64,000 bases of DNA from Klebsiella phage N1M2. The notes under the pieces were generated by a model that was given only the letters and a program-made list of their open reading frames with translations, did no database searches and was not told the origin of the DNA. The stretch lies in the sequence record MN642089.1; one strand, given 5' to 3'. The translations under genes and the position numbers were made by a program. Position 1 is the stretch's first letter, and each line of letters starts with the position of its first letter. Positions 3,890 to 56,355 of the stretch are shown here, in pieces.

Positions 3890-4581
3890 TGAATGACCGC
3901 ATGAAGAAACTGTTTGAAGAATGTAGTCAGCTGGCTAAAGACAAAAACATCAATATCGTCTTACCGACATCGGGTGGTCCATCAAAATTAATGGTTGATG
4001 GAATTGAATATCTTGATGGCGGGACGGTTAAGGCCAATGTCATTAAAGGTCGCACTGTTGGAGGTTCTTTCCAGTTCAAGTTCGAACCTGGTTCGCCGAT
4101 GGCTAAGCTCAAAGAAATGAATGTTCCTCATGAAGCTTTCCAAGAGTTTCGTTTAGGGGCAGTTGCGGGATTGGTTAATCATGGGATCCCTATCGATGAG
4201 CAACTAAAATCATTAGTTGAAAGAATTGAAGCAGCTAACGGAAACTGGACCAAGTTCATCCGTACTCCTTCTGAAATCACTCCGATTTATAATGAGCATT
4301 TTGAACTGACTCTGACTAAGGCGGTTTATAACGCACTGGCTCAGAGCTATTCAGCAACTATGTCATTCAGACTGACAATTGCATCAAAAGAGTTGATTAA
4401 GGAAATCACTGAGCAGTACCTGAAGAAAAATAAAGCGCAAGTCGAAGTGACAGGGTGTGGAGTATATGTCCACTACGATACGGTTAAAGAGCTGGGTAAA
4501 GATATCACTAACGACAAGCCTTTTAATCCTGATGACCTAGTATTTACTATCATCCCTGGATCTACCATCAAACTGTCTTAA
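3889..4581 (+). CDS. hypothetical protein
   Basis: 230-aa ORF. TAATG overlap coupling with the upstream gene. Confidence 0.55.
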   Translation: MNDRMKKLFEECSQLAKDKNINIVLPTSGGPSKLMVDGIEYLDGGTVKANVIKGRTVGGSFQFKFEPGSPMAKLKEMNVPHEAFQEFRLGAVAGLVNHGIPIDEQLKSLVERIEAANGNWTKFIRTPSEITPIYNEHFELTLTKAVYNALAQSYSATMSFRLTIASKELIKEITEQYLKKNKAQVEVTGCGVYVHYDTVKELGKDITNDKPFNPDDLVFTIIPGSTIKLS

Positions 4582-4608: not shown

Positions 4609-5376
4609 ATGAAAATGGATAATGTAAAAGTAACTGGTAATGGCCGTGTATTCCTTAGTGGCGAAGAACTTGATCGTAAGAAGATTATCGACATGATCAC
4701 TTTCAATAGTCGTCATGGTGCGATGTCTTCTTCTGATCTCCGTCCTGAAGGTGAACTTACTGTGGAGCAAATTCTTCAATGGGACGACATGTTCCCTGAA
4801 GTAGAATACAGTGAACAAATATTGGGGAAATATCAGGGTTCTGGTTATCTAACACCAGTCCAGGCTTTCTCAATTGACATCTCTGTTTTCGTCAAAGATA
4901 AAGGTTGGTTGCATCCACGTCACTGGCGTTATAATTATAATACTGGCATCATTGTGTTCCTTTGTCACGATCTGTTGGTTGGTGAAAAGATCATAATGAA
5001 TGTCAGCAGCCGTTCTAGTATCTTAGCCCGCAGATACATGGACAAATTTGAACGTGAAGGTATTGTGGGTGGTATTCGTCGTGGGATCTTTAACATGCTT
5101 GATTCTACAACTGAAACTAATAAGACTAGGATTAGTTTGATAGGTGGGCAACCGATCAAATCTGGCTGTTGGAAAGAAATGCTTGCCGAAATCAAAGGCG
5201 TCGCCATTACTCAGTTCCCTAATGGTTTAGGTTATCCGGCTGGACTCCATTCTGGTTACATGGAGTTGGATGACGATCGTCCTATGACTGTTCGTGGAAA
5301 TGGTCGCCAGAAGTTGATTGATAATGGTAAAGGTAAAATGTGGCCTGAAGCCCGTACTCGTAAAGGACGTAAATAA
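4609..5376 (+). CDS. hypothetical protein
   Basis: 255-aa ORF. RBS agagagaaatgaaaATG. Confidence 0.55.
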   Translation: MKMDNVKVTGNGRVFLSGEELDRKKIIDMITFNSRHGAMSSSDLRPEGELTVEQILQWDDMFPEVEYSEQILGKYQGSGYLTPVQAFSIDISVFVKDKGWLHPRHWRYNYNTGIIVFLCHDLLVGEKIIMNVSSRSSILARRYMDKFEREGIVGGIRRGIFNMLDSTTETNKTRISLIGGQPIKSGCWKEMLAEIKGVAITQFPNGLGYPAGLHSGYMELDDDRPMTVRGNGRQKLIDNGKGKMWPEARTRKGRK

Positions 5377-31500: not shown

Positions 31501-32706
31501 ACCTTCGTTATATACAAACTCAGCGGTATAGAGCCCACCGACTTGTTCAACGGTGTTCGGGAAGTTAGTGCTTAAATGACCTTCATAGATCATCGCGTCA
31601 TTTTCATCCCAGGTAGTAAACTTCATTGCACCGAAGTTACCTTGCTGGAGTAACGCAGATGGAGGAGCACTAATTCTTACCTTATTGCCTTTATAGAAAG
31701 CAGTGATCTTAACCTGTACATCTGAACCTGATGGCGCGGTAACGGTTTCTGGATCAATTACGAAAGTAAGATCGAAACTGTTATCCTTTTCGATAACCAC
31801 ATTGATTCTGAACGTTTTCTTAACAGGTCGACCTTGCCACATATAAGTGACACGCACGATGATCTCATCACGGACTTCTTTTTCAGAAGAACCATAAATG
31901 GTTTCACCAATGATGAAGTTTCCGTCTTCAGAACGTTTAGGAATGGTGTAACCAGAACCAGTACTGATTTCGATCAAAGCTTCATGTGTGATGTCAATAG
32001 TGGTGTTGAACCAATAGGTATTTGGAATACTGAAGTCTTTACCACGCTGGGTCGTAATGGACTCAGGAAGGTTAGAAGTAATTCCAGGAACATTGGCTTC
32101 ATCCAGAACTAATTCATAAATGAATAGTGGATAGGTTCCAGTACCAAATGAAGCATCAGTGATTTTAACTGTACCTGATTCGAGAGTATCGTAATCAATG
32201 AAAGTTAAAGATTCACGAGAGGTAACGTATTCATTAAAGAACAAATCACCAAAGGCAGCCATTGGACCACTGATGGTTTTTGCTTCTTCTTGAGAAAGCA
32301 GAACACCATAGTTATTAAGCCACTTACACCACAGTAAACCGTGATCTACTTTGTTGGCTTTAACGTAAGCTTTCAAGTTATCCAGGTCTTCGATCTCGAT
32401 CAATGGAACGGCGAAGTCTTCCAGGATATCTTTCATTTGTACACGAGTGATGTCGACGTCAACACGTGCAAAACCGGTTTTGCGCGCTGTAAAGCAAACG
32501 CGAGTAATACCATCAGGGAAAGCAACTGGGTTCTCAATAACTAAGTCACCAGCAACCAAACCTGTGTAACGTTCTTTAGCTAACGCCAACTCATCTTCAG
32601 GTCCTTCAACCTCAAGACGTTTTATACGTTCTTTCAAGAAACGTTCTACTGGTGTGTATAACGGATCGTTAATACACTTTTTGTTAATCTTAATTTGCTC
32701 TGCCAT
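22579..32706 (-). CDS. giant structural fibre/adhesin-like protein with tandem Ig-like domains, 3375 aa
   Basis: 10.1-kb uninterrupted ORF. AAGAGG RBS. Many ~90-110 aa beta-rich repeats. The N-terminal ~200 aa has a standalone paralog at 44725..45330. Confidence 0.75.
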   Translation of the reverse strand: MAEQIKINKKCINDPLYTPVERFLKERIKRLEVEGPEDELALAKERYTGLVAGDLVIENPVAFPDGITRVCFTARKTGFARVDVDITRVQMKDILEDFAVPLIEIEDLDNLKAYVKANKVDHGLLWCKWLNNYGVLLSQEEAKTISGPMAAFGDLFFNEYVTSRESLTFIDYDTLESGTVKITDASFGTGTYPLFIYELVLDEANVPGITSNLPESITTQRGKDFSIPNTYWFNTTIDITHEALIEISTGSGYTIPKRSEDGNFIIGETIYGSSEKEVRDEIIVRVTYMWQGRPVKKTFRINVVIEKDNSFDLTFVIDPETVTAPSGSDVQVKITAFYKGNKVRISAPPSALLQQGNFGAMKFTTWDENDAMIYEGHLSTNFPNTVEQVGGLYTAEFVYNEGDITSKAPAYVNVVLTRPDTGPKFEIRSFPAVIRGHKGDKGLLTVGAFYNDEPISPTDLDIRTGKKGEKELIEYNSVDQLGVNYTIIKDANKPGEEIEDDYDQVFRWIAPTGVRYVITRKVRVIVAQVSTVELVPVLSNPLVVNKYQFGDYPFKLIVNGVDVTKKISDYTFEDEKGFIIPKKGNADQWFVGNAPDVPAPAESTTVPFKFRYTIDGVWRQFTYDQTFNVNAWEQDPGTTEPGINTKTVAVPSSALIDGLSDETGYFEFQVYHLSEDITATAEIMKDKLVTPAGITFNSFVYIEERNVIRANYSKLQPTTEPGKVYIQRPGIEDPKPEDIALVHVSTDVKQSRVLVLKDYDKETTVEVGGSSALAKITLTFAGKVVPLTDPNLTYKRTDKSNVRIVDVKDNGVEVVDNVWEYIGETRQSGLELEYIYTDPRDGKQTNVKFTLPVFTVYPEMRLEGTPAAPIDAAIWDTGLLPFTLMAGNTNWTGAITSVKSIQDNEYIAFNKLNWEVIWAEKEATTITIPLEIKWTVGKAKDRKFITEVVFNLEPWDQITFGGDWEPKSIKADSRTNGTITGNFVYKGKPANADVVVDKAASTIPETFIMGVSSNVDGEGVVIGYETTRGGDYLMTLIYRHTPSGRTIQADIPTEIAWPHELNLVKITPSVKGIWNAEATIELVYNWDGIPLTLNDPKLKLTATSGDGEPVELVKINDESLTVKLAKGGEKGEDYDYDFKINVEYVDPNGKTWTNENTVPVVIHIPDVRIGANPSFNVNVWDRGVVGITLVDDQGRPVPIESLTPRGTNPYITFTEPNKWYVTGGSQSTSITTTLRLSAQYSMGGNTYQMDTETDFNIAKYDGKKFVITEGPEEVEGKAGTPGTMKFRFKYAGDVAKNVSIDLGKSTIPKNIVLGEITPDGDVPYTLLGQAEDTLRLVFVRENATNPPVVNDDYAVAVVKVITQSSDEVFTVESKTPAITIPWMETATIVLALKYGEYGIPGNTPGLKYELVDNGKAHSIRIVGGVSNGVVIQAIRSNVSEALTVYPEDIKVTYEVGAPAPKEGTISTQVSIQMGKVEITNNDPINGKIWDRGSFTQGIKMGDNPLNTVQGYKTNEPDNQWVEFIAPRGWEIIGAEKVQSDKTIKMQVLYKVDEVPEVQSLEFDATFRIQGAQDTTRFKCTVTPNKLETAVGEQNTLKVRPIYKDKEVGASATFKPELSTFPKSVKYVSSSMDGVDFVLTFEGVEAGLGEMDLVFWSPAAGTDPAPYDVWTGKVPTKVMGELGVEIGDRDNLLTGKDGDTGEYKLQILFGGIPIDAKQEMANGSLRVTVEKGEGASPNAGVLSIGSWESESFNYSLAGVVAPGREITVSDFINITYTYGGNNYSRRVEIPELYTSAPVVVVPRSPVACKMFDTQSLGIGSATCGDVSLTASSLPAPAESGWMNCELDEEQPNGYITVSLRSFTVVKADETNKSLTLKMIYNGIYRNWTWKGEADVVFNIAAWNQRTLESFWMHRNPPEHYPDNTYPLVMEVGDVTTVDMQTVYKLIPNFNNTDIIDYLETDFRDAMDIEFTGPIGGGSEARARYSVTPTKEFKGDIKLILRRPGGAKPGVEFLDWCSLVIGADFKQPPLLVTGWNAGLKGGNGDKGNMPLRVTLRGRNILLDNPDLKITLDPDDIIKITGSNQTQYQYEVIAPIDAELGKREIKVSLSYTDPNTGTTHTGEYTQPFEIVVPADYPVITPIRVSVEPFNRVRGPQIFKVMVGGTDLTTQCTPVSMETLDADAQGILIIPDDENPNKDWMWCIDNYIGNTGNHNVRTSWVIEVPFRGSTIQIPDVELTTLVASRPTHAGWIQGTGAPNPFELTKDKEGELRFKMTNRGLPTTALTLNQEQTQNSAFFEVLSVEPDGDELVVKYKGLNSFFAVFNFVWDVVGYDGTNDLHQRGKVQLKAFQGPRLEPNTDPVDVDIWGKFTPFKVFSGETDITTQCSITAISSNYFEAGPSATVQCINADPTPKTVEVEFTYSTPASTGNVVLTGKITVNISAWDGIEFWGEPVNKNGVSAPVITEEGDGFVINIPFTNNFYTFFFRAMLKNKTYPIGTNRSGYSTINRIESEDPTAIHWTSGGGSNANEVSVRVIPDKLGKYKGKVPLQYNGTEANGPNGYPAGTPGKNFDNMPVIWNMFEDKITFREGFVPEPIIVPAGSTTVVDVPCDLVWGALAVNLNLTNEVISVGLTHDLGIATLFGASNVQGTNRFNWTAKSYKISPAAVKPGATDVTSYFTFNIRFKNPNNNKEYTFSYDQPIIFKAKEGATDPVLTVTDVQEVNTSVWKKNTGLPFKLAIDGVDYPADTSSVTNIKAADKDKDWLEMGPKLTDGYTVIDGEPEATTKTGTFIVTVVQGPRVWEIEQDVVFNIEGYDGQALSFKFNNPSQFNNGIMGQTNAIFRGTVSGEYRKVAISDYSLFEIDSARSKLPGFAENIYNQGPDNNSKNIYFNWQALATDMKEPQEGYLCVGLKSRMYLPDAVEGVDFTYVKVPVQTYYVDGYYLISADPEEFTGQFGGPVMRMDVKYRKGIDEARILSTDFNRAVFTPNVVTTTYIAGGYFQFKFANDIDVGELTSDVVAAWNKDTNIPPDRQLKIPFKVTQVSTVPKPTVTNLTSEITAHINESGPLPFKLDWKGNDVTDQISAVRISDNSYVSIKDKGWVISHADVQTTKVMPTFEVDITLDNVTFTIKQEVTFTVYGYNGKEINATADDVILMTGEQGFITIKGDYSGEPLVGNVTFDKSSSISIPAGLITFGNMSPGSDGTLVIKVTGGNVGNGDLKIRLKSVHDTGNGNIGSDYIDLRPKVEILPTELTPASGFQTTGTGNYYELPTLIQSVLLGSTALANTDENLIIQIVDYPAVTIGTLSDKTIGYKFTNDSTEEVIHKFKLKFTYKGRSEYIVDITLTQSASPTTPYVTDITQIDVEYSKSYAAPFKVISPR

Positions 32707-32819: not shown

Positions 32820-35636
32820 TTATTTAGTTTTCAAATCAATAACTAATGGATAGTAAAGTGGGTCAGGTGAAGGGAATCTGAATTTAGCATCTGCATAATA
32901 AGAAGTTCTTCTTTTCTTATCTGCAATAACCTCAACATATCCAATACCTGTTTGACGGTCATAAATAAGATCGATTGTTCTTACTTTCGTGTTGATATTG
33001 TTCTTGAAGAAATCATCAATACGAATGAACTTAGGATTCTTACCACTGGCATCTTTAAACTGCCACTTGTAAACTAATGTTCCCGACTTGGTAAACTCAT
33101 GACCTAAATAAGAAGCTGTTGCTGCAGGAGCATAATACTGCTGTCCTGTTTTAGCTTCGACAGTTAGCGAAGTACCAATCACTCTCACTTCAAAATTCAC
33201 ATCGAAAGGCATAACACCATTAACATCTTTCAATGGGAGTGTGTGGGTAATGATACCAGTTTTATCATTATAAATGAAGTTACTGGCTTCTTTGGTAAGA
33301 TTGTTTATTTTAACACCGGCACTAGAAGGTCGAGTCGATCTCAGTTGGTAACTAAGAACTAAGTCGCCATTCTTAAGTTCATAACCTAAGTACTCAACGT
33401 TAACTTTCAGTTTAGGTTCTTCAGTGTGAAGTAATTTGAACCATTGATCGTGAACACCATCCTCAGTTTCTATTCTGAGTTTAATATCCAGTCCGTAGTT
33501 TAGCTTGGCGTCCTGGTTATATTCACAATCAACGGCAAAGTTGAGATTACCAGTTTCTGGATCATAGCTTTCAGAACGACGGAGGTTTGAGATCCCCTTT
33601 ACATTCTCACCCAAAACAACAGAAGTTATTTTAACAGAAGGTGGGATTTCCCCGTTCTTAAGTATGACACCTAAGTTAAAGTTAAGTGAGTTCTTAATCA
33701 CACTAATGGCGTTAGTTTTCAATGAAACCGGAAATGAATCAGACCCGAATGTAGTAGACGATTCGAAATCGTATTCTGGGTTATCTCTGTAACCAGCCAG
33801 GTAGACCTTTCCTTTAAGGGTATGGGTTTCTTTGAAGCCGGTGGTTTCTACTTTGGTCAATATAGTCAATCGACCATTATGATAACCAGATTTAATGATT
33901 CCAGTGGATTTACCATTAACTTCAACTTTATTACTAACCATTACCATATTGGCAGGCGATGAGCCATCTTCAAACTTAGGTTCGAATACAGCCTTTTCAA
34001 TACCACCAATGACGGTATGTTCAATCACAGTAAAATCAATCTTACCTTCATCGGTAGGGATATTAATGTAATCCACAGTCTTGATATGAAGTGGTATTTT
34101 TCTTAGCACATTAGTTTTCACTAAAGCAGTACCAATCAACTCTACTTCTACAGCTTCTTCTTTCTGTTCATTCAGAATAAAGAATCCATTAACAATGTTG
34201 GGGTTCGTATCGTGTTTTTGAACGACATTGTTACTAGAAGGAATACGGTTGATCAACAAGCACAGTGAAGTGGCATCGATAGACACTATCTTCTCATTAG
34301 AAACCAGTGAGAAACTATAATCCATTCTGTCGGATTCATTTCTTATAATCGCCTCATTAAAGATGGCAATTGGTTTAGCCGTAGCTTCAACAAACCAAGG
34401 AACCATTTTATTATCGATAATGAAATGACCACGAAGGTTATAATGAAGTTCTCTACTGTTATCCACTACGACTTCCCAGGTAGCGATAAATTCATTACTA
34501 CCTTCAATCCAATTCAATCTTGGAGCAGCTGACCCGATTAAATGACTAACGAAGTCTGCTGGAGGAACGTGTAGATTCTGGAGAAGATAATTGGAATCTT
34601 CCTTTGAGGTTACCTTAAACCGAGCTTGAAGTGTATTATCTCCTAAGGTGGTAGAGATTAATTCTGCCTTATATGTAGATTGATGGTCATAATCCACAGA
34701 CAGATTAAAATCGATAGGTGGATAATTTTCACCTTTGGCTTTGGTAATAAAATTGTAATTCAACGTACCTTCTGGGATAACCCCCACCACTATATCGAAC
34801 TCGTATAGACCAGTGCGAGGATCGTAATTGATACTGTTAGGTTTTACAATACCAGTTGGAACATTATTGCCATATAGGAAAGGTGTCTCAAGAGAGAATG
34901 AACTCGGTGGTAGATTGGTATCAGCCCACTTAACTTCCATCATTACACGCAATGTTCTTTCTTTGAGAACTTTACTAATAACTTTATAGTTGATTGTTTT
35001 AGTTCTTTCTAGTCGACCATTGAAAGAAACTACAGTTCCAGGTTGGTCAGGTAAGGATCTTACTTCCGAACTATATTCCATATCAGCATACATAGCTCTG
35101 CTCTTAGCCTGGTAGGTCGCCACCAATATACCATCGATAGGATTATAAGTTTGCGTTAGTACTTTGTTACTAATCAGGTTACCTGTTGGCTTAGCTTCAT
35201 TATCCAAGCAGGCGAACTCAGGGATCTTCCCATTGGTTCTTTCTACTTTTAATGTCACTATCAGTTTATCGTCATGGAATCTAAATGAGGACGACTTGAT
35301 TAGTAAAGCCGGTTCTGGGATTCTGAGTTCTTCAGAATGTTCAAAAGGTGTTGAATATTTCTCACCTTCTATGATGTAACTTCCTTTGACTTTAAAAGGA
35401 ACATCCACATCTGGGTTTGTTTCCGGTTCTACTTTGAACACTGTTCTGTAAGTACCGGTATTTAAATCGTAACCTTGAGAAACCGGATCACCATCTAAAC
35501 CAATTACATTATTAAGGAAAACCCGTTTAGGATAACCACCCCTTGTATAACGAACAACGTGTTCTATAACTAGGTGATCAAACCCTTCTCTTTTTATTCC
35601 TCCACTAAGATATATAGTGGTTGGGTGATCGATCAT
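32820..35636 (-). CDS. large structural protein, 938 aa
   Basis: GGAGG RBS. Beta-rich. Upstream of the giant gene on the same strand. Confidence 0.65.
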   Translation of the reverse strand: MIDHPTTIYLSGGIKREGFDHLVIEHVVRYTRGGYPKRVFLNNVIGLDGDPVSQGYDLNTGTYRTVFKVEPETNPDVDVPFKVKGSYIIEGEKYSTPFEHSEELRIPEPALLIKSSSFRFHDDKLIVTLKVERTNGKIPEFACLDNEAKPTGNLISNKVLTQTYNPIDGILVATYQAKSRAMYADMEYSSEVRSLPDQPGTVVSFNGRLERTKTINYKVISKVLKERTLRVMMEVKWADTNLPPSSFSLETPFLYGNNVPTGIVKPNSINYDPRTGLYEFDIVVGVIPEGTLNYNFITKAKGENYPPIDFNLSVDYDHQSTYKAELISTTLGDNTLQARFKVTSKEDSNYLLQNLHVPPADFVSHLIGSAAPRLNWIEGSNEFIATWEVVVDNSRELHYNLRGHFIIDNKMVPWFVEATAKPIAIFNEAIIRNESDRMDYSFSLVSNEKIVSIDATSLCLLINRIPSSNNVVQKHDTNPNIVNGFFILNEQKEEAVEVELIGTALVKTNVLRKIPLHIKTVDYINIPTDEGKIDFTVIEHTVIGGIEKAVFEPKFEDGSSPANMVMVSNKVEVNGKSTGIIKSGYHNGRLTILTKVETTGFKETHTLKGKVYLAGYRDNPEYDFESSTTFGSDSFPVSLKTNAISVIKNSLNFNLGVILKNGEIPPSVKITSVVLGENVKGISNLRRSESYDPETGNLNFAVDCEYNQDAKLNYGLDIKLRIETEDGVHDQWFKLLHTEEPKLKVNVEYLGYELKNGDLVLSYQLRSTRPSSAGVKINNLTKEASNFIYNDKTGIITHTLPLKDVNGVMPFDVNFEVRVIGTSLTVEAKTGQQYYAPAATASYLGHEFTKSGTLVYKWQFKDASGKNPKFIRIDDFFKNNINTKVRTIDLIYDRQTGIGYVEVIADKKRRTSYYADAKFRFPSPDPLYYPLVIDLKTK

Positions 35637-36494: not shown

Positions 36495-37310
36495 TTAAAG
36501 TTCGAAGTCATTGAATGCGCCTTCTGCAACATTGGAATCGATTTGACCTACCAGGTAAGAACTAACCAAAGATTGTTTATCATGGGAGAAAGCCCAGCCA
36601 TTAACAATCTTCTTTCCATTAGATTTTAGAGCACGCCCTATCGATCTCCTAGATATTCCCAAGATTCCAGCACATTCATGGCTCGATTTGAATAACACGA
36701 GTTCAGTCCTGTCACTTATCTCAAGACCATAGAACATTTTACTTGTTCTGGTTCCGCTGTTATTAACTGAAAGTCCCTCTAATGTTATTTTCCATGTGTG
36801 GTCTAATAAAGTATCTTTATATTTATTGACAATCATTGTGCCTGAGACATTGGGAGTTCCAGCCCATCTTGATAGTTCTCGCAGAGAGTGTAGAGTGATG
36901 ACTTTTCCTGTCTTTACATTCTCTATCTTTATATGTTGGCTTGCTTTATTAAGTCCTGTCTTATATGCATGGAAGATGTTATCTGAATTGGTAGTCCATT
37001 CAAGATTGCTCTTAGTGCAGTCTAATTTATTACCATTAATGTGATTACAAGTTATTAGTTTGCAACCTTCTGGAAGATCTGGCCTTGGGCCATTAAATAT
37101 GGAACACACGGTGACATGAATAGTTATATAAGCCTGAACACCATAATCAGAGACGAGATTAACTGAACGATATCCATTACGGAGAAGGTCTTTCATTTTA
37201 AATTGGTCTTTCTTTCTCCTAACATCACCATTTTCATTTATCTCATAATTAGAGAACCCAGGTATGATTATCCAATTATCTTTATTATCCATGAATACCT
37301 CATGCCCCAT
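36495..37310 (-). CDS. HNH homing endonuclease (NUMOD4-like N-term) with C-terminal NrdB-tail duplication
   Basis: WIIIPGFSNYEINENGDVRR is the NUMOD4-like segment. CNHINGNKLDCTKSNLEWTTNSDN is the HNH motif. The last 26 aa ([22 protein letters not shown]) mirror the NrdB C-terminus. Confidence 0.8.
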   Translation of the reverse strand: MGHEVFMDNKDNWIIIPGFSNYEINENGDVRRKKDQFKMKDLLRNGYRSVNLVSDYGVQAYITIHVTVCSIFNGPRPDLPEGCKLITCNHINGNKLDCTKSNLEWTTNSDNIFHAYKTGLNKASQHIKIENVKTGKVITLHSLRELSRWAGTPNVSGTMIVNKYKDTLLDHTWKITLEGLSVNNSGTRTSKMFYGLEISDRTELVLFKSSHECAGILGISRRSIGRALKSNGKKIVNGWAFSHDKQSLVSSYLVGQIDSNVAEGAFNDFEL

Positions 37311-37343: not shown

Positions 37344-38489
37344 TTACAGACTAAAATCCGCAAAGTCATCAGTGTCGACTGTTGAATCAATTTGCCCCAC
37401 AAGATAGGAGCTGATCTCAGCCTCCTGTGGGGCCACCTGAACGTTGTCAGACACCAACCAGGAGTTAATCCATGGGATTGGGTTAGTGGTAGTTGTAAAT
37501 GGCATACCGAGCCCGATAGCGTTCATACGGATGTTCGCAATGTATTCAACATACTGGCACAGGATCGGCTCTGACAGACCAATCATAGAACCATCTTTAA
37601 ACAGGTATGCTGCCCATTCTTTTTCTTGCTGTACAACTTCCAAGAACATGTCGATTGATTCTTGTTTGCATTCTTCAGCAATTTCAGCCATCTCTGGATC
37701 ATCAGCACCATTTGCAAACAGATTCAGGATATGCTGAGTGCCAGTAAGGTGGAGAGCCTCATCACGTGCGATGAGTTTGATGATCTTAGCATTACCTTCC
37801 ATCAGCTTACGTTCTGCGAATGCAAACGAGCAAGCGAATGATACATAGAAACGAATAGCTTCCAGGGCGTTAACTGATTGAATACACAGATAAAGCGCTT
37901 TCTTAATCTCACGCAGGGTAACGACAACACGTTTACCATTAACAGTGTGAGTACCTTCACCCAGGTAATAATACTGCTGGGTTAAAGCAATCAGTTTATC
38001 GTAGTAACGGGACACCGCACCAGCACGACGGGTGATGTGTTCGTTATCCACAACATCTTCAAACACGATAGAAGGATCGTTAACGATGTTACGGATGATG
38101 TGGGTATAGGAACGAGAGTGAATCGTTTCTGAGAAGCCCCAGGTCTCTGCCCATGTTTCCAGTTCTGGAATACTGATAATCGGAAGGAAGGCTACGTTAG
38201 GCCCACGACCCTGTACGGAATCCAGAAGCGTCTGATATTTGAGGTTACTGATGAAGATATGCTTTTCATGTTCCGGAAGGTTCATGTAGTCAATACGGTC
38301 ACGAGTAACGTCAACTTCTTCAGGACGCCAGAAGAAAGACAGTTGCTTTTCAATAAGCTTTTCAAAGATACCGTGCTTTTGTTGGTCATAACGAGAAACG
38401 TTAACGTTCTGACCCATGAACATGTGTTCTAACAGTTGGTTGTTTTTATTTTGGTTAAAAGTTGAATAGCCGGACATGTTTAACTCCAA
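37344..38489 (-). CDS. nrdB: ribonucleotide reductase class Ia beta subunit
   Basis: 381 aa. Near-colinear high identity to enterobacterial NrdB, recalled from memory ([54 protein letters not shown]-terminal [20 protein letters not shown]). Confidence 0.9.
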
Positions 38490-47026: not shown

Positions 47027-47247
47027 AGTTAACCTTCTTCATCATCTTGCTGATATTAACATTCGTTATCTTTAACGGTGTTGTCTTGCATTGTTATGGT
47101 GAAGAGTTTGACAAAGACTTATATAACTTCATTTGGAAGTTTAATCTTTGTTTGTCTTTATTCTTGGCGTACATCACGTACGCCTTCTTTAATATGTTAA
47201 TCGACTATCGTTACCCAACTGGAACTGAAGATGAAGACTTTGAATAA
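47011..47247 (+). CDS. small membrane protein (putative TTG start after GGAGGAG)
   Basis: Hydrophobic LKLTFFIILLILTFVIFNGVV segment. ORF-track N-terminal extension has no RBS. Confidence 0.3.
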   Translation: MERTLKLTFFIILLILTFVIFNGVVLHCYGEEFDKDLYNFIWKFNLCLSLFLAYITYAFFNMLIDYRYPTGTEDEDFE

Positions 47248-48421
47248 ATATGAAGCCTGGTATATGGAACAGCTCAATAACATTATTGAGAACGGTCAGC
47301 GTCGTGGAGACCGTACAGGTACTGGTGTTATTTCATTACCTGATTTGGAATATCGTCATGATCTCCGTGAATCCTATCCGGTAACTTTCTCTCGTTGGTT
47401 TAACCTGCAGTTCCCTATCATCGAGATTCTCTGGATGATGTCTGGTGAATCAAACATCCAACGTCTGAAAGAAAATGGCTGTCCATTCTGGAATGGCTTT
47501 GCGGTTAAAGGTGACAAGATCGCACCAACCGAGCTTTCCATTACTGAGCGTCTGAAACTGCTGGCTAAAAAGCAGGGTGTCCCTTATGGTAAGGTTCTTC
47601 AAATCTTCGGTAGTGAGCGTCCTGAAGATATTACCATCGAACTGGACAAACAGCAGATTCCTAACACCCAGGATATGCTGATTGCTAAAGACGGTGATCT
47701 TGGTCCGGTGTACGGTGTTCAATGGCGACATTGGCCTAATCCGGATGGGACTACTTTCGATCAGCTGGTTTATGTATTGGAAACCCTCCGTAAAGATCCT
47801 GACAGCCGTCGTGTGGTCGTTGACTGTTGGAACCCAAGCTATCTACCTGATCCTAAGAAGAGTCCTGCAGAGAACGCTGTAGACGGTAAAATGGCATTGA
47901 CTCCTTGTCACTTCACTTTCGGTTTCTATACTTGGGAAATTCCTTTCCATGAACGTGTAGAAGAACTGAAGAAAGTTTGTAGTCGTCAGGAATGGATGTC
48001 AGTTTATCCAATCTATAAAGGTAGTGAGACAATGTTGAAGATCGATCACTTGATCGAGAAATACAATGTCCCTAAATACTATCTGGACCTTAAATACGTC
48101 ATGCGTAGTAATGACTGGATCTTGGGTCAACCGGCTAACATGAACATGTACTCTGCCATGTTGATGATGTTTGCGAAAGAACTGAATATGGTTCCTCGCT
48201 ATGTCAAATACACTGGTTGGGATGCGCATGTTTATACCAACCACCTGGAAGGCGCTGAAGAACTGAATAAACGTTGGGCTGAGAAGACTCACAAGTTCTC
48301 AACAATCAAGATGGATCTGGATACAGAACCAAAAGGTTTGTTCGGTTACCACCAAGATGACTTTAAGATCATCGGTAAGTATGAACCTATGGATCGTATT
48401 AAGTTCCCTATCGCCATCTAA
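47231..48421 (+). CDS. td: thymidylate synthase (ThyA family) with two large insertions, 396 aa
   Basis: DRTGTG, DLGPVYGVQWRHWPNPDG, DPDSRRVVV..WNP, ALTPCHFTFGFY (catalytic Cys), GWDAHVYTNH (Asn means dUMP-specific), C-terminal IKFPIAI. A ~60-aa insert lies in the small domain. A ~45-aa insert lies between FY and the Y.RS.D motif. Confidence 0.85.
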   Translation: MKTLNKYEAWYMEQLNNIIENGQRRGDRTGTGVISLPDLEYRHDLRESYPVTFSRWFNLQFPIIEILWMMSGESNIQRLKENGCPFWNGFAVKGDKIAPTELSITERLKLLAKKQGVPYGKVLQIFGSERPEDITIELDKQQIPNTQDMLIAKDGDLGPVYGVQWRHWPNPDGTTFDQLVYVLETLRKDPDSRRVVVDCWNPSYLPDPKKSPAENAVDGKMALTPCHFTFGFYTWEIPFHERVEELKKVCSRQEWMSVYPIYKGSETMLKIDHLIEKYNVPKYYLDLKYVMRSNDWILGQPANMNMYSAMLMMFAKELNMVPRYVKYTGWDAHVYTNHLEGAEELNKRWAEKTHKFSTIKMDLDTEPKGLFGYHQDDFKIIGKYEPMDRIKFPIAI

Positions 48422-50126: not shown

Positions 50127-50212
50127 TAATCGGCATCAACAGTATGGGGAATTTATCCTTGTACTGTTGATGCTATATTTAGTTAAACACTTTATTTTTG
50201 TCTGGAGAAATA

Positions 50213-50860
50213 ATGTCACCTAAATTAGTATTGGCGTTCGACATGGACGACACTCTTGTAGATACTTATGGTTTTATTTACAACCACATGTTGCAGTTCT
50301 ATACTGACCGTGGTATGGAAACCGAATTAAATTATATCATGGATATGCACGCCAAAGGTTTTAGTAGCTTAAGCTGGCGTAAAGATGAATCTGACGATGT
50401 GTTCTATCAGATCATCAAGAAACATACTTATATGGTTGATGCTAAACCAACCATGTTGCTCTCCAATGACTTCATCTCTATCTGTAATCGACTGATTGAA
50501 AGATATAAAGATGACGTTCAGTTTGTTATTTGTACACATCGTGGTTTTACAAGCCATGGGCAACCATTAACTGAAGAGTGGTTAGAGAAGTTTGAAGTCG
50601 ATCATATCTTCAAAACTGTTCATGCCCTGGATCGTAAAGAACATGCTAACAAAGTAGCGTTCTTGAAAGAACAATATCCTGGGTCTGAAATCCGTTTAGT
50701 TGACGATAACCCAATGCATGATGGTGAAACTGTTCATCCTTATATGCCTGAGTTAGTTATCTATGATAAGATTACTGCGTTACCGGGTTATGCTAATCAG
50801 CGTAAGTGGACCGGTAATCTTTCTTTCTTTAATATGTGCTACCAAATCCTTAAGGACTAA
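50213..50860 (+). CDS. HAD-superfamily hydrolase, 5'(3')-deoxyribonucleotidase-like (start moved to ATG 50213)
   Basis: Motif I FDMDDTL (DxDxT), motif II ICTHRG, C-terminal VDDNP acidic motif. RBS GGAGAAATAATG. Confidence 0.65.
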   Translation: MSPKLVLAFDMDDTLVDTYGFIYNHMLQFYTDRGMETELNYIMDMHAKGFSSLSWRKDESDDVFYQIIKKHTYMVDAKPTMLLSNDFISICNRLIERYKDDVQFVICTHRGFTSHGQPLTEEWLEKFEVDHIFKTVHALDRKEHANKVAFLKEQYPGSEIRLVDDNPMHDGETVHPYMPELVIYDKITALPGYANQRKWTGNLSFFNMCYQILKD

Positions 50861-50862
50861 TC

Positions 50863-51486
50863 ATGAATATTTCTACTACTTCTAAACTTTCTTCATTCAT
50901 CCACTATACCACTTACTCTATGATCGTTGCTGTTGACGAAGCGGGTGGTATCGGCATTGATAATAAATTACCTTGGCCTAAGTGCAAGGAAGATATGCAG
51001 TGGTTCCGTTCTCAGACTTTGGGTAAAATCATCGTCATGGGTCGTAAGACTTTTGAATCGATCGGATCCAAACCTCTCCCTGGTCGTATCAACATTGTTA
51101 TTGGTTCCAAACTGGAACCAGAAGTAGCTCGTACTTTTAATAAAGAAAATGAAGGTAACAAAGACGCAGGGTATCTGATGTTTGTTCCTTCTGTTTCTAA
51201 AGCTAAAGAAATGATTTCAATGACCGCTGGTACACTTCACAATGGTGGTGAAGTAATGGTCATCGGTGGTGCTTCCATTTATGAGGCATTCTGGAACGAC
51301 ATTGGTCGAGTCTACCTTACTACTTTCAAGGATACCTTTAATACTGACGTTAAGATCCACATGAATCTAAATCAATTTGAATTGGTTTATCGAGATGACC
51401 GTTCAGTGTTGGGTCCTAAGTTTGAAATCTATGATGCTCAACAAACCTTCCGTGTTGAACGTAAAGACACTTCCCGTTTTGCTTAA
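50863..51486 (+). CDS. frd: dihydrofolate reductase
   Basis: MIVAVDEAGGIGIDNKLPWP...VMGRKTFESIG...LPGRINIVI...VIGGASIYEAF. All are canonical DHFR motifs. Confidence 0.85.
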   Translation: MNISTTSKLSSFIHYTTYSMIVAVDEAGGIGIDNKLPWPKCKEDMQWFRSQTLGKIIVMGRKTFESIGSKPLPGRINIVIGSKLEPEVARTFNKENEGNKDAGYLMFVPSVSKAKEMISMTAGTLHNGGEVMVIGGASIYEAFWNDIGRVYLTTFKDTFNTDVKIHMNLNQFELVYRDDRSVLGPKFEIYDAQQTFRVERKDTSRFA

Positions 51487-51766: not shown

Positions 51767-51790
51767 AAGGGGATGGGTAACTATCCCCTT
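51767..51790 (+). terminator. hairpin AAGGGGAT-GGGTAACT-ATCCCCTT
   Basis: 8-bp stem with an 8-nt loop. Weak. Confidence 0.3.
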
Positions 51791-51958
51791 AGGAGTAATG
51801 TCGTGCATTTCTTATTAGAGCTATTAGCACTATTCGTAGGTGCTATCGTTATGGGGTTCGTATCTTTCTTAGGGTATGAAGCATTTAAGTACTTGAAAAC
51901 CCGTGCGGTAAAATTTTTCAAACAGATATTATCTAAGTAGTAAAGTAGAAATAATAAA

Positions 51959-52618
51959 TTGGAGATGATGATGTCTGAACAAATAACTGCGTTAGATTCT
52001 AGAGAAGTTTATCCAATGGAAATCATTGGGGTGATCTCAGAACAATCTAATCCAGCAATCATGGCTAAGATTCGTGGGAACACTAAACGCTTACCGTATC
52101 ACATCTATACCAGTGGTCCAGGTGGTAATGTGGCAGCTGGGTTCGCGATAATGGACATATTAGGATCCATGGATGTGAATGTAGTTTATTTCATCCAGGG
52201 TTTCTGCGCATCGATGAATGCGTGCTTTGTTCAGGATCGTGATTTCCTGAGATTGTGCTATCCGCATACTCGATTCATGTTCCACAGTTCGATGTTGAAG
52301 TTAGAGGGGAATGAGGAAACTATCGATAACCTCTACAAGAACCTTAAGCTTTATGATTCTGAAATTATTCAGGTCGTGGCTGATGGTGTCGGAATGGAAT
52401 TCAAAGAAGCTAAACGGAAACTGTTCACCTATGATAAATTCTTTATGGGTAAGGATTTATTAAAGCTGGGCGAAAACGGTGCTGTAGATGGCATCATTCA
52501 AACTGATCTGGGTGACCATAAATATCTGTGTGAAACTCGCGATGGATTGAAAGTGATCGATACTTACATTCATCAACGTTCAGACATTAAAGAACTTCCA
52601 CTGTGGGTGAAATCGTGA
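51959..52618 (+). CDS. ClpP-like serine protease (S14 family homolog)
   Basis: HIYTSGPGGNVAAGFAIMDIL...IQGFCASMNACF...RFMFHSS aligns to ClpP YINSPGGVITAGMSIYDTM...MGQAASMGAFL...RVMIHQP (catalytic Ser and His conserved). Confidence 0.7.
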   Translation: MEMMMSEQITALDSREVYPMEIIGVISEQSNPAIMAKIRGNTKRLPYHIYTSGPGGNVAAGFAIMDILGSMDVNVVYFIQGFCASMNACFVQDRDFLRLCYPHTRFMFHSSMLKLEGNEETIDNLYKNLKLYDSEIIQVVADGVGMEFKEAKRKLFTYDKFFMGKDLLKLGENGAVDGIIQTDLGDHKYLCETRDGLKVIDTYIHQRSDIKELPLWVKS

Positions 52619-53037
52619 ATCAGTTACTATGGATATTCTTGGGTATGGGTTGTGGGATCTATATCTTAATAGGTCTCTGGGTATTAGGTAATTACTTCTG
52701 GTGCTTCGGGACGGCACAGAGTAATCCAACCACTAAAATTAAATTCATTAACACCCTTATCTCCATTGGTCTAATTCTGCTATGGCCATTCTTTTATCTG
52801 TGGTTAGGGTGTGTGATCATTTATGACTATATCCAACACCTCAAGACTAAGAAAAAGAAAGTTCGTCTTTATACTTGCATAGGTAAGGGCGGTCGTTATA
52901 AATGTTACGGAGAAACTATTGGAGCAGGTACATCCAAAGGTGAGTCCGTGGTTATCTATCAAGACATAGATAGCAAGAAACTATTCCATCGTACCAGAGA
53001 TGACTTTGATAAACGCATGAAGCTGCTTGATAAGTAA
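52603..53037 (+). CDS. membrane protein with 2 TM helices and a Cys-containing cytosolic tail
   Basis: LLWIFLGMGCGIYILIGLWVLG and LISIGLILLWPFFYLWLGCVII are the two TM segments. Confidence 0.4.
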   Translation: MGEIVNQLLWIFLGMGCGIYILIGLWVLGNYFWCFGTAQSNPTTKIKFINTLISIGLILLWPFFYLWLGCVIIYDYIQHLKTKKKKVRLYTCIGKGGRYKCYGETIGAGTSKGESVVIYQDIDSKKLFHRTRDDFDKRMKLLDK

Positions 53038-53085
53038 TCTGTAATAAACCAACCTCACTAACTTTAGAAAATAGGAATCAAGAAT

Positions 53086-54645
53086 ATGTCTTCCATCCTG
53101 ACTGAACAAACCTTCACCAATGCATCTGAAACTCGCCAGATCGTAGACGAAGTAATGAACAATGCATTTGAATCTGTATGTTCTACCATGGGACCGAATG
53201 GTCGTTATGTTGTAATCAATCAGCTGAATAAACCGAAGGTCACCAAAGATGGCGTGAGTGTAGCGAAAGCTCTGGATTTCGGTGAAGCTCGTCGTAACCT
53301 GATCGCTCAGATCATCACGGAGCCGTCAATCAAAACCGATAACGAAGTTGGTGATGGCACAACTACAACTGTGTTTATGACCAACCACCTGTATCGTGCA
53401 TTTGGTTCGCGCATGACTTTCCGTAATGTTCGTTATGTTGATAGCCTGATTCAACAAGTCCATGATTATATCGGGACATTGATTATCCCTGGTAATCTTC
53501 ACAGTGAAGAATTCCGTAACATGTTGATGACTTCTTCGAACTATGAAGAAGAGATTGTCGATAAAGTTCTGGAGATCTTCAAGTCTAACCAGAATCCAAA
53601 TATCACGCTGCAAAATACTCCGGCGCTTCCTAAGGATGAGATCGAGTTCACTAAAGAAATTAAATTCGATGGTGAATATGGTCAGAACAGTTATGCTCCG
53701 GCAAGTGGCGTTACTGTGGTCCCTACCGATAAAGCATATGTGGTGGTGGTTGATGGTAATGTACGCAGTATCCCTGCAGAGTTCCTTAGTCGTATGGCCT
53801 TTAAAGCTACTCAACATGCGGTCATTCTGATTGCTCGTAACTTTGATCCATCGGCAATGGCACAGATCAATAACGAGAACCAACGACTGGGTATTATGAA
53901 GTTCATCCCATATAAGGTTGCAGCGGCAGGTTCTTTGGGTACTGATACCATGAATGACCTGGGTAAGATTCTGGGACTGAGTCCAGTATTTGAACTGGGA
54001 AGTTATGATTATGATCGTGCTGTTACCAACCAGTTCGATATGTATCTGACAACCTCTGGTCTGCAGTTCGATAAAGACAATGCTGAGATGGAAGCCATCA
54101 CTGACGAGATCTTAGAAGGTCTGGATGTTCGTTGGGAAGCGCTCTCTATCGTAGAACGTCAAACTCCTGTCGGTCTGGCATTGGCACGTCGTATTGCTCG
54201 ACTGCGTGCAAACAACATTATCCTGAAAGTAACTGGGGTAACTCCAAGTGATGCAACTGAACGTTATTATCGCTATGAAGACGTTGTTAAAGCAGCGAAG
54301 ACTGGTTTGCAGTTTGGTGTGATTCCTGGTATTGGTTATGGCTATCTGATGGCATCTAACGTCATTGCTGCCTTGCCTGAACAATCTGATGAGGAGCTTG
54401 AGATCTGTCGTAAGAACTTGATCCAGGTATTATGTGCTCAATATGAACACTTAACTGGTCATGATTATACTGGCGGAACTCCTACCTTTATCGATCTGGT
54501 AACTGGGGAAGAATCTGATACACCTATGAATGTATTTGATAATGCCGCGGCTACTATGATTGCTCTTAAAGGTGCTTGGCAAACTGCCAAGACTTTGGGC
54601 AAGATCAGTAATGTAATGGGCCGTTCTAATAAGTCTTATGCATAA
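53086..54645 (+). CDS. GroEL-like chaperonin (Cpn60 family), 519 aa
   Basis: MGPNGRYVVI..KPKVTKDGVSVAKALDF..VGDGTTTTVF aligns to GroEL LGPKGRNVVL..APTITKDGVSVAREIEL..AGDGTTTATVL. Confidence 0.8.
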   Translation: MSSILTEQTFTNASETRQIVDEVMNNAFESVCSTMGPNGRYVVINQLNKPKVTKDGVSVAKALDFGEARRNLIAQIITEPSIKTDNEVGDGTTTTVFMTNHLYRAFGSRMTFRNVRYVDSLIQQVHDYIGTLIIPGNLHSEEFRNMLMTSSNYEEEIVDKVLEIFKSNQNPNITLQNTPALPKDEIEFTKEIKFDGEYGQNSYAPASGVTVVPTDKAYVVVVDGNVRSIPAEFLSRMAFKATQHAVILIARNFDPSAMAQINNENQRLGIMKFIPYKVAAAGSLGTDTMNDLGKILGLSPVFELGSYDYDRAVTNQFDMYLTTSGLQFDKDNAEMEAITDEILEGLDVRWEALSIVERQTPVGLALARRIARLRANNIILKVTGVTPSDATERYYRYEDVVKAAKTGLQFGVIPGIGYGYLMASNVIAALPEQSDEELEICRKNLIQVLCAQYEHLTGHDYTGGTPTFIDLVTGEESDTPMNVFDNAAATMIALKGAWQTAKTLGKISNVMGRSNKSYA

Positions 54646-54652
54646 CTAAGAT

Positions 54653-54677
54653 CGAGCTGAGGGTAACACCTCAGCTC
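54653..54677 (+). terminator. hairpin GAGCTGAGG-GTAACA-CCTCAGCTC followed by T9 run
   Basis: Perfect 9-10-bp stem, then cttatttttttttc. Confidence 0.7.
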
Positions 54678-54709
54678 GCTTAGACTCATTCTCCTTATTT
54701 TTTTTTCTT

Positions 54710-54955
54710 ATGAACAAATTAATTAAAGAAGAGTTAAAGAAACATTTAGAAAGTGGTGATTTCTGTGTAACCGTTTGTATTGGTGAAACGACCTTTCTAT
54801 GTTTTCCTTTATTACACTCTGTAGATATCTATAGGCTAGAAGGGAATCATCTAACCCACCATGAAAAGGAAATCAGCCCTGATCTCGATATAGATGAGAT
54901 AGAAACTTATTGCATCTATATAGAAGAACGGTGTCTAGCTGATAACAATAAGTAG
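54710..54955 (+). CDS. hypothetical small protein
   Basis: 81 aa. Confidence 0.4.
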   Translation: MNKLIKEELKKHLESGDFCVTVCIGETTFLCFPLLHSVDIYRLEGNHLTHHEKEISPDLDIDEIETYCIYIEERCLADNNK

Positions 54956-55005: not shown

Positions 55006-55287
55006 ATGATACTGAAAAGAATTACCACTGCGAAGGGCGAAGGTAGAAAACAATTAGTTAATTTAGACAACATGCTTGCAATTGCCTTTATGATAATTGT
55101 TTTAACTTATGCGCTATGCATTGACTATTATGTCTTTGCCTACTTTACTATGGGTTTGGTTGTGGGTCGCGTCGGAGAAATAATTTTTGAAGTGAAGCAC
55201 AATTTATTTGATAAACCTTTTTTACATTGCCTAGTACTTTTAGGGATTCCGGTTCAGTTAGCTTGGAATCACTTTATGCATAGTTAA
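55006..55287 (+). CDS. small membrane protein
   Basis: 93 aa with two TM helices. Confidence 0.4.
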   Translation: MILKRITTAKGEGRKQLVNLDNMLAIAFMIIVLTYALCIDYYVFAYFTMGLVVGRVGEIIFEVKHNLFDKPFLHCLVLLGIPVQLAWNHFMHS

Positions 55288-55303: not shown

Positions 55304-55888
55304 ATGTCCAGTTTGTACTTTTACCACAGTTCAATGAATGCGGGTAAATCAACAACATTGCTACAAGCCAACTACAACTATCATGAGCGCGGGATGAAGA
55401 CTCTTGTTCTTAAGCCAGCTATTGATACTCGTGAAGGCAAAGCTGTAATACGTTCACGTATCGGGCTTGAAGCTGAATGTGTCATGTTCGAAAAACATGA
55501 TAACCTATTCTGGGTCATCCAAAGCCTGATTGGATTAAAACCAAATCCACATTGCATTCTTATTGATGAAGCACAATTCCTAACCAAAGAGCAGGTCATT
55601 CAACTTTCAGAGATTGTTGATCAACTCGATGTTCCGGTATTGTGTTATGGGCTGCGGTCTGATTTCCAAGGGAACTTATTCCCAGGGTCGGCTGCGTTGT
55701 TTGCTTTAGCTGATAAACTCGAACGTGTCAAAACGATTTGTTGGTGTGGTAGAAGTGCTCACATGGTTTTGCGTCTTGACTCTGAAGGGAAAGTGGTACG
55801 TGAAGGTCAGCAAGTGGATGTAGGTGGGAATGATAAATACATTTCGGTTTGCCGCAAACACTTTAAGTCTGGTCAAACTCACGCTTGA
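55304..55888 (+). CDS. tk: thymidine kinase
   Basis: MSSLYFYHSSMNAGKSTTLLQ (P-loop), VLKPAIDTR, IDEAQFL, CWCGRSA...VCRKH (zinc ribbon). High similarity to T4 and E. coli Tdk. Confidence 0.9.
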   Translation: MSSLYFYHSSMNAGKSTTLLQANYNYHERGMKTLVLKPAIDTREGKAVIRSRIGLEAECVMFEKHDNLFWVIQSLIGLKPNPHCILIDEAQFLTKEQVIQLSEIVDQLDVPVLCYGLRSDFQGNLFPGSAALFALADKLERVKTICWCGRSAHMVLRLDSEGKVVREGQQVDVGGNDKYISVCRKHFKSGQTHA

Positions 55889-56333: not shown

Positions 56334-56355
56334 CAGGCTACCTTCGGGTAGCCTG
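56334..56355 (+). terminator. hairpin CAGGCTACC-TTCG-GGTAGCCTG + T-tract
   Basis: UUCG tetraloop. Followed by ttattcggttcttattttttttgg. Confidence 0.7.

Follow-up and report, generated by a model that had tools for sequence, protein, structure and literature searches.

The chaperonin gp246 of Pseudomonas fluorescens phage OBP has already been purified and assayed, and its structure has been solved (6hdd; PMC9598537, PMC5934643). It is a single-ring heptamer that shows ATP-dependent suppression of aggregation and refolding of endolysin, with no co-chaperonin (PMC9598537; PMC5934643). A second GroEL-like, co-chaperonin-independent protein, gp146 of the nucleus-forming jumbo Pseudomonas phage EL (PDB 6tmt-6tmx), lacks both GroES binding and a lid of its own, and it keeps proteins from aggregating without encapsulating them (PMC7185714). 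ClpP has been described as a patchily distributed peptidase of jumbo phages (groups 1 and 2.2) that is probably aimed at host proteins (Iyer et al. 2021, PMC7824862), and adjoining Clp protease and GroEL open reading frames (ORFs) of an Aeromonas phage were merely listed in a 2025 paper (PMC12837969). In OBP, a ClpP-like gene has been annotated beside the chaperonin gene since 2012. Here we describe a locus of the same kind in Klebsiella phage N1M2 (sequence record MN642089.1), of which a stretch of 64,000 nucleotides (nt), referred to below as the window, was analyzed. An earlier note on this DNA had proposed that positions 51959 to 54645 carry a phage-borne proteostasis module consisting of a ClpP-like protease, a small membrane protein, and a GroEL-like chaperonin.

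RESULTS

Orthology of the locus

The note's three consecutive, co-oriented genes were found where it had placed them, all on the plus strand. The first ORF (51959-52618; 219 amino acids [aa]) encodes a serine peptidase of the ClpP family (peptidase S14), recognized by Pfam PF00574 and by ClpPs in the PDB; the second (52603-53037; 144 aa) encodes a small membrane protein, recognized by phrog_12584, phrog_9878, and hydropathy; and the third (53086-54645; 519 aa) encodes a GroEL-like phage chaperonin, recognized by PDB 6hdd and phrog_5725. Judged by homology and gene order, they are the orthologues of OBP gp244, gp245, and gp246, respectively. The OBP record has the same order, running from OBP_244 (“putative ATP-dependent Clp protease subunit”) through OBP_245 (hypothetical) and OBP_246 (“chaperonin GroEL”) to two small ORFs and thymidine kinase. 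OBP is nevertheless a different phage species, and the window is nearer to Serratia phages: the region has 79% nt identity to vB_SmaM-Yubaba and Sureiya, with identical gene order. Both Serratia phages are classed as Petsuvirus, Chimalliviridae (nucleus-forming jumbo phages), and the source phage is, by its sequence, OBP-like and one of the nucleus-forming jumbo phages, with an enterobacterial host.

The ClpP-like protein

The first ORF scored 47.7 bits with the Pfam CLP_protease hidden Markov model (PF00574; cutoff, 20.2; E = 2e-12), in agreement with the ClpP identity proposed earlier. As a single sequence, it matched dozens of solved ClpPs in the PDB (best E, 9e-10), and a profile of 12 ClpP-like homologues matched 105 PDB ClpP sequences (best E, 7e-16). 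Translation probably starts at ATG 51971, which has GGAG 6 nt upstream and agrees with the MSEQ start of the homologues, and yields 215 aa; the numbering used here is that of the 219-aa ORF. The complete Ser-His-Asp triad is retained: Ser85 (codon at 52211-52213), His109 (52283-52285), and Asp159 (52433-52435) correspond to S97, H122, and D171 of E. coli ClpP and do not vary among 12 homologues, the identity of which goes down to 24%. The oxyanion glycine, G56 (E. coli Gly68), is invariant in 12 clade members. In ACP1, a divergent orthologue, Glu occupies the triad Asp position.

Comparison with E. coli ClpP (PDB 1tyf, S14), whose reference sequence was verified for length and for the placement of S97, H122, and D171, showed a shared fold family in which the triad, the oxyanion Gly, and the handle region align without gaps. 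On assembly into a barrel (heptamer or tetradecamer), the gap-free handle region is the relevant observation, and the sole model is a low-confidence monomer. The remainder of the protein departs from the E. coli enzyme. About 7 aa of helix A are deleted (across residues 20 to 27), and the alignment revealed no VPMVIE-type axial-loop motif at the N terminus. The pocket that receives the IGF/IGL loops of ClpX and ClpA was scored at 11 positions (L23, L48, F49, Y60, Y62, F82, I90, M92, F112, L114, and L189). Two of these (L23 and L48) fall in deletions, four are replaced by polar, charged, or otherwise nonequivalent residues (F49K, Y60H, F82S, and M92Q), and only Y62, I90, F112, L114, and L189 are still hydrophobic. 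Canonical docking to host ClpX or ClpA is thus unlikely on this alignment, and no cognate ClpX or ClpA gene was seen within the window.

The NCBIfam models for true ClpP gave scores of 36 to 42 bits against cutoffs of 249 to 361 (TIGR00493, 36.1 versus 308.6; PRK00277, 42 versus 249), i.e., around one-tenth of the cutoff, which places the protein below equivalog level for a bona fide ATP-dependent ClpP. It is just as distant from the ClpP-related head maturation protease family (NF045542), which it matched at 41.5 bits against a cutoff of 120. The protein also has a C-terminal extension of ~40 aa (residues ~180 to 219; nt 52498-52618) with the motif TR.G.K.ID..H.R.D..LP, which is not present in canonical ClpP. 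This extension is the part of the protein that is best conserved across the clade, above the catalytic core, and a profile made from it alone and run on the fetched loci retrieved all clade members there and nothing besides. AlphaFold2 (AF2) models of this protein and of the middle protein were built with just 6 to 7 close homologues and are of low confidence; for the ClpP-like monomer, the predicted local distance difference test score (pLDDT) was 52.6, and the top Foldseek matches were all ClpPs, with a template modeling score of 0.31; the Foldseek matches of both models were given no weight. Word-indexed searches for homologues yielded close relatives only.

Among other phages, the ClpPs of Rak2/121Q-like jumbo phages (e.g., 121Q gp464) resemble the window protein in being accessory, patchily distributed, and encoded outside capsid modules. 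They differ from it in sequence (~29% identity; in 121Q gp464, the N-terminal region is canonical and the extension is present only in its first part) and in context, since those phages encode GroES instead of GroEL and their ClpP genes do not adjoin GroES. In the text of the phAPEC6 virion proteome, a T4-type prohead protease is listed separately, and Clp goes unmentioned. A 10-kb stretch of 121Q (209583-220047) contains genes for a DnaJ-like chaperone (gp457), two ClpP-like proteases (gp464 and gp473), and a ClpYQ-like protease (gp475), a different proteostasis-type cluster with no GroEL; GroES is encoded elsewhere in these phages.

The chaperonin

The ORF at 53086-54645 matched Pfam Cpn60_TCP1 at 55.6 bits (cutoff, 34.3), PHROG 5725 (“chaperonin groEL”) at E = 6e-122, and PDB 6hdd, which comprises residues 6 to 520 of OBP gp246, at E = 4e-214. 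The Cpn60/GroEL identity claimed for this gene therefore holds, as does its ATP-binding signature: GDGTTT stands at residues 89 to 94 (nt 53350-53367), and all of the nucleotide-site residues are kept (in GroEL numbering, G32-P33, D52, D87-G-T-T-T91, D398, G416, and D495). The protein is 63.8% identical to gp246 over its full length (~36% of the residues differ), 27.5% identical to EL gp146 (E = 2e-49), and 20.9% identical to Salmonella GroEL. Since its score against the bacterial GroEL equivalog (TIGR02348) is far under the cutoff (101.6 versus 582.1 bits), it is not a bacterial-type GroEL.

Its departures from GroEL are extensive. The R197-E386 salt bridge is gone, with G and P at these positions; three of the four inter-ring positions altered in SR1 differ (E461Y, S463H, and V464L); apical residues that contact GroES or substrate are changed (Y203S, L234A, V263N, and V264E); and there is no GGM tail, the C terminus reading ...GRSNKSYA. 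All of these features have identical or near-identical states in gp246. For gp246, PMC9598537 and PMC5934643 cite a study by Semenyuk et al. in 2016 and a later cryo-electron microscopy structure. The loss of R197-E386 in the OBP chaperonin has been noted before (PMC9598537). EL gp146 is a more distant relative: EL cycles between a double-ring and a single-ring state, and no ClpP-like or gp245-like gene lies upstream of its chaperonin gene.

A GroES-like ORF was sought within the window, and none was significant. The best candidate, a 255-aa ORF at 4609-5376 (+), scored 10.4 bits (E = 0.02 against about 1,000 ORFs) and was judged to be noise. When the phage database was searched by tblastn with an E. 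coli GroES sequence, co-chaperonins were found mainly in Rak2/121Q-like and other phages, and no OBP-like phage was among the matches listed. Oligomeric state and activity have been measured for gp246; by analogy, we infer that the window chaperonin is a single-ring heptamer active without a co-chaperonin. By homology, it would serve phage proteins as a holdase or foldase that is driven by ATP and has no lid, which is known biology.

The middle membrane protein

The probable start codon of the middle gene is GTG 52615, from which a protein of 140 aa would be made. This codon overlaps the stop codon of the ClpP-like gene as a 4-nt GTGA, an arrangement repeated in Yubaba and in three metagenomic or bacterial-assembly contigs, and it suggests translational coupling of the two genes. 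The protein has two hydrophobic segments by hydropathy, and AF2 placed helices at residues 2 to 37 and 44 to 82 (pLDDT, 67.5; low confidence). Its layout comprises two N-terminal transmembrane helices bearing a conserved FWCFGT motif and, after them, a C-terminal domain of ~55 aa that is predicted to be cytoplasmic. The earlier description of a small protein with two transmembrane segments and a CxxK..KC tail was correct as to the segments and as to the presence of the tail residues (C-IGK-GGRYK-C), but conservation in the family extends to the first Cys only, so that the tail is not a conserved motif.

No Pfam family matched the middle protein above threshold. Two phage families of unknown function did match: phrog_9878 over the N-terminal hydrophobic half (E = 2.5e-11) and phrog_12584 over the C-terminal part (nt 52846-53034; E = 4.5e-19), with 10 other members of the domain matching phrog_12584 at E values of 1e-13 to 1e-19. 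When 1.84 billion representatives were scanned in full with HMMER, 337 proteins with the phrog_12584-type domain were retrieved at E ≤ 1e-3. Nearly all of them match the C-terminal domain alone, either as standalone proteins of 58 to 100 aa or as the C terminus of larger proteins, and fusions to Lar, DUF551, and DUF5983 were found. The consensus is YTCIGKGG.YELLG..GAG.SRG...VYRD..TG.LFHRT..DF..RM. Membership in DUF1653 (PF07866) was rejected (15.8 bits versus 23.5; E = 0.018), with 4 of 57 family representatives giving weak matches (best E, 0.0014); a distant relationship to DUF1653 is possible. A PDB search with the domain found no solved relative. A role for the domain as a cryptic GroES-like or otherwise chaperonin-specific cofactor was also considered and rejected: because the domain occurs widely, standalone or fused, and in phage contexts that are unrelated, it is best described from its distribution as a general phage accessory domain.

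Distribution and linkage of the ClpP-like gene

All of the clade ClpP-like genes that we examined lie directly 5′ of the chaperonin gene. This is the case in Yubaba, Sureiya, OBP, SXP01, AH04, Kc263, and LAh10/D3/D6/D9, and the same adjacency is found in AhC3_1, ZPAH34, ACP1, AVP1, and AerS_266. The order DHFR, ClpP, (middle gene), Cpn60, thymidine kinase recurs in four of four independent metagenomic or bacterial-assembly contigs, and the DHFR-to-thymidine kinase order is likewise found in SXP01, AH04, Kc263, LAh10, AhC3_1, and ACP1. The linkage of the ClpP-like gene to GroEL covers about 17 genomes and contigs spanning 42 to 81% GroEL identity. Since the DHFR-to-thymidine kinase block is syntenic throughout, vertical inheritance also predicts this adjacency. 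The block of DHFR, ClpP-like, middle, Cpn60, and thymidine kinase genes in a Salmonella enterica serovar Saintpaul assembly (GCA_007314255.1) lies on the 267-kb contig AAHPQS010000007.1, presumably that of an OBP-like jumbo phage assembled along with its host.

No ClpP-like gene was found within 4 kb of GroEL in pEt-SU, Survivor, or pAEv1810 or in the distant GroEL-bearing clades represented by Miami, RisingSun, EL, and pTD1, and 121Q-like phages have ClpP-like genes without GroEL. In the DHFR-GroEL gap of pAEv1810, a 33-aa ORF (3844-3945 of the fetched locus), MSEDNKVEEECKEFGLKQHVPVPVGLKFPKAFA, consists of the N terminus and the C terminus of ACP1 ClpP and is, on this comparison, an in-frame deletion remnant of the ClpP-like gene. 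Comparison with the ClpP-like gene of its congener ACP1 (2199-2945 of the fetched locus) shows that the loss was recent and took place within one genus (Ferozepurvirus). By gene content, three related phages (pEt-SU, Survivor, and pAEv1810) have lost the ClpP-like gene. The middle gene is the steadier neighbor of GroEL: it lies directly 5′ of GroEL in pEt-SU and Survivor, both of which are without the ClpP-like gene. It varies in form, being split into a transmembrane gene and a soluble gene in AH04 and reduced to the soluble domain in Kc263, and it is absent from one metagenomic contig.

The prohead protease of the lineage

The head-maturation serine protease of this phage family (phiKZ gp175, SPN3US gp245) belongs to a fold family unrelated to the ClpP-like protein and is encoded elsewhere, the ClpP-like protein being additional to it. 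The gp175 homologue lies at 267478-268095 in OBP (E = 1e-24), and in Yubaba it is YUBABA_01460, annotated as “prohead core protein protease” (BLASTP E = 2e-31). The Yubaba gene follows the virion RNA polymerase subunits and two head genes, an order like that of phiKZ, and in both phages the protease gene is ~42 kb from the ClpP-like gene. When phiKZ gp175, gp176, gp177, gp178, and gp180 were searched by tblastn against the window, there were no matches; the prohead-protease region is outside the window. PHROG scans of the window's virion-block ORFs revealed no protease, and a 271-aa candidate from this block proved to be an HNH endonuclease. Finally, OBP gp244, gp245, and gp246 do not carry the label “virion structural protein” that the OBP record uses for other proteins. 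As far as homology can tell, the ClpP-like protein is not the prohead protease, and the observation that the note had said would reduce it to one (a ClpP homologue in virions, adjacent to capsid genes in relatives) was not made.

Neighboring genes and intergenic hairpins

The placement of the trio within a nucleotide-metabolism block, and not in the virion module, was also borne out. Upstream lie genes for thymidylate synthase (47231-48421; 396 aa), a HAD-like phosphatase (50198-50860), and DHFR (50863-51486), and downstream lies thymidine kinase (55304-55888). The match of the thymidylate synthase to its Pfam model is in two parts, suggesting that the protein has an insertion in comparison with typical ThyA; the RisingSun homologue of this gene is interrupted by a GIY-YIG endonuclease. 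Directly 5′ of the ClpP-like gene, the ORF list, jackhmmer, and hydropathy identified a 55-aa ORF with a single transmembrane segment (51773-51940, +). This ORF is kept in Yubaba, in SXP01, and in one metagenomic relative, and a ClpP-to-GroEL transcription unit may begin with it. Between GroEL and thymidine kinase are an 81-aa ORF (54710-54955, +), which neither Pfam nor PHROG matched, and an ORF for a membrane protein of 93 aa (55006-55287, +; ORF list, jackhmmer, and hydropathy). Conservation of these two small ORFs is confined to the OBP-like clade, and the idea of a universal small neighbor of phage GroEL was rejected.

A scan for terminator-like sites found 9 in 6.5 kb, compared with 4.2 ± 2.2 expected, and intergenic GC-rich hairpins occur at 50132-50174, 51767-51790, 54653-54678, and 56334-56355. 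The hairpin at 51767-51790, 5′ of the unit, has the structure AAGGGGAT-GGGTAACT-ATCCCCTT; any function of it is putative. The hairpin at 54653-54678, 8 nt past the GroEL stop codon, is strong and GC rich (10 pairs, 7 of them GC) and is likely to be a transcript end or an RNA-stabilizing element. Two of the hairpins have loops with GGTAAC, and these two bracket the ClpP-to-GroEL unit. A sigma-70 promoter scan was uninformative (11 sites versus 18.3 expected); such phages use their own RNA polymerases.

Elsewhere in the window, an HNH homing-endonuclease-like ORF (36495-37310, −; phrog_59, E = 7e-35) adjoins the ribonucleotide reductase small subunit gene (37344-38489, −; phrog_86, E = 4e-154). 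A run of giant ORFs, all on the minus strand, occupies 22579-32706 (3,375 aa), 17938-22557 (1,539 aa), 32820-35636 (938 aa), and 15755-17923 (722 aa). The first three have no Pfam or PHROG match, and the 722-aa ORF has no match in PHROGs, the sole library with which it was scanned.

DISCUSSION

We favor, with a probability of roughly 0.7, the reading that this locus is the counterpart of OBP gp244, gp245, and gp246, i.e., a co-chaperonin-free chaperonin and an accessory peptidase whose adjacency reflects inherited synteny of the DHFR-to-thymidine kinase block and not an obligate chaperonin-protease machine. We are highly confident of the underlying identifications taken together, namely, those of the chaperonin and the middle protein and that of the ClpP-like protein as a catalytically competent, noncanonical, accessory peptidase of the ClpP family that is not the head protease. 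The chaperonin would form a heptameric single ring that, driven by ATP, binds aggregation-prone phage proteins and keeps them soluble without a GroES-type lid. The peptidase would be self-compartmentalized and accessory (nonessential) and would degrade unfolded or unwanted polypeptides during infection. The loss of docking features together with the conservation of a new tail suggests an enzyme that is unfoldase independent or noncanonically partnered, so that substrates would be delivered either with no unfoldase or by a noncanonical partner engaged via the C-terminal extension; the peptidase may act near the membrane. The three genes would be transcribed together, as the hairpins flanking the unit suggest, and these hairpins and the translational coupling of the first two genes make co-expression plausible. 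From its absence in related phages, the ClpP-like gene appears to be dispensable.

Several points weigh against this reading. Every sampled clade ClpP-like gene adjoins GroEL, which is what real functional coupling would give. For the ClpP-like and middle proteins, the support is sequence comparison and low-confidence models; the comparison of the pocket and the N terminus is an alignment at ~20% identity in the least conserved part of the protein, and the pLDDT values of 52.6 (ClpP-like) and 67.5 (middle) leave the oligomeric state and the fold of the extension as predictions. Absence from virions depends solely on the missing label in the OBP record. Moreover, dispensability is drawn from isolated phages that are without the gene and not from fitness measurements.

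Alternatively, the ClpP-like ring could be a dedicated partner of the single-ring chaperonin, with the C-terminal extension docking on the 7-fold ring and the peptidase serving either as a cofactor resembling a lid or as a chamber for degradation, in a triage of phage or host proteins between folding and destruction. ClpP rings and gp246 rings are both heptameric, the adjacency to GroEL holds across the clade, and the docking features for ClpX and ClpA are degenerate while the new extension is the best-conserved part of the protein. The possibility of “an unrelated co-factor” for phage chaperonins has also been left open (Bracher et al., PMC7185714). However, gp246 by itself shows activity in vitro (PMC9598537, PMC5934643), and pEt-SU, Survivor, pAEv1810, and all of the more distant GroEL-bearing clades retain GroEL in the absence of the ClpP-like gene. 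The DHFR and thymidine kinase flanks are equally syntenic, so the linkage may be historical only. We therefore regard a dedicated partnership as quite unlikely and its fullest form, a 7-fold triage machine in which the ClpP-like heptamer docks via its extension on the lidless chaperonin, perhaps together with the gp245-like membrane protein, as very improbable.

It could also be that the protein co-opts host ClpX or ClpA, or mixes into host ClpP rings, and so degrades host proteins or defense factors, as Iyer et al. 2021 (PMC7824862) proposed, from its patchy distribution, for the ClpP of jumbo phages of groups 1 and 2.2. The intact triad and handle region and the pattern of gain and loss of the gene are compatible with this proposal, but it is at odds with the IGF pocket, in which 2 of 11 positions are deleted and four more are nonequivalent, with the missing axial-loop motif and partial loss of helix A, and with scores of 36 to 42 bits against true-ClpP cutoffs of 249 to 361. 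We consider such a role unlikely, and the related suggestion in the earlier note that the phage remodels host quality control through host Clp ATPases is weakened by the same poorly conserved docking features. A role as an additional protease for head or virion maturation, from the ClpP-related class employed by many phages, is extremely improbable. PHROG “head maturation protease” families did match the protein (best E, 1.5e-10), some orthologues bear this label in RefSeq, and the NCBIfam Clp_rel_HeadMat score of 41.5 bits is about level with the true-ClpP scores; that score is nonetheless far under the family cutoff of 120, and the neighbors are nucleotide-metabolism genes and not portal, scaffold, or capsid genes. 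In addition, the lineage holds a canonical gp175-type prohead protease in phiKZ-like synteny, viable relatives are missing the ClpP-like gene, and OBP gp244 has no virion-protein label.

We thus return to an inherited chaperonin gene with an accessory peptidase gene beside it, a trio that is real but mostly known: the chaperonin has been studied, and the ClpP-like gene has been annotated and remarked on before. The claim of a novel, integrated proteostasis module is not sustained, given that the chaperonin is an orthologue of the studied gp246, that the ClpP-like gene was annotated in 2012, and that GroEL persists without it. Nor did we find support for the suggestion that the chaperonin folds the giant proteins of the phage, the substrates named in published work being phage endolysins (PMC9598537). 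The pairing was said to be uncharacterized, and our literature search for a functional study of the ClpP-chaperonin pairing indeed found none, although ClpP in jumbo phages has already been discussed (PMC7824862). What the present analysis adds is small: docking features that have degenerated, a tail that is conserved, coupling through GTGA, a remnant left by deletion, and a phrog_12584-type domain with a wide distribution.

The locus adds one genome to the known jumbo phages that have their own co-chaperonin-independent chaperonin and an accessory ClpP-like peptidase. For those who study phage chaperonins, it may be of use that the ClpP-like gene is never the head protease, has lost its docking features, has gained a tail, is coupled to a membrane protein gene, and has been lost repeatedly. 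High interest would attach only to the reading in which the tail docks on the chaperonin, which we regard as very improbable. If the tail does bind the chaperonin, the question of a cofactor for phage chaperonins would be answered and a new folding/degradation machine would be defined.

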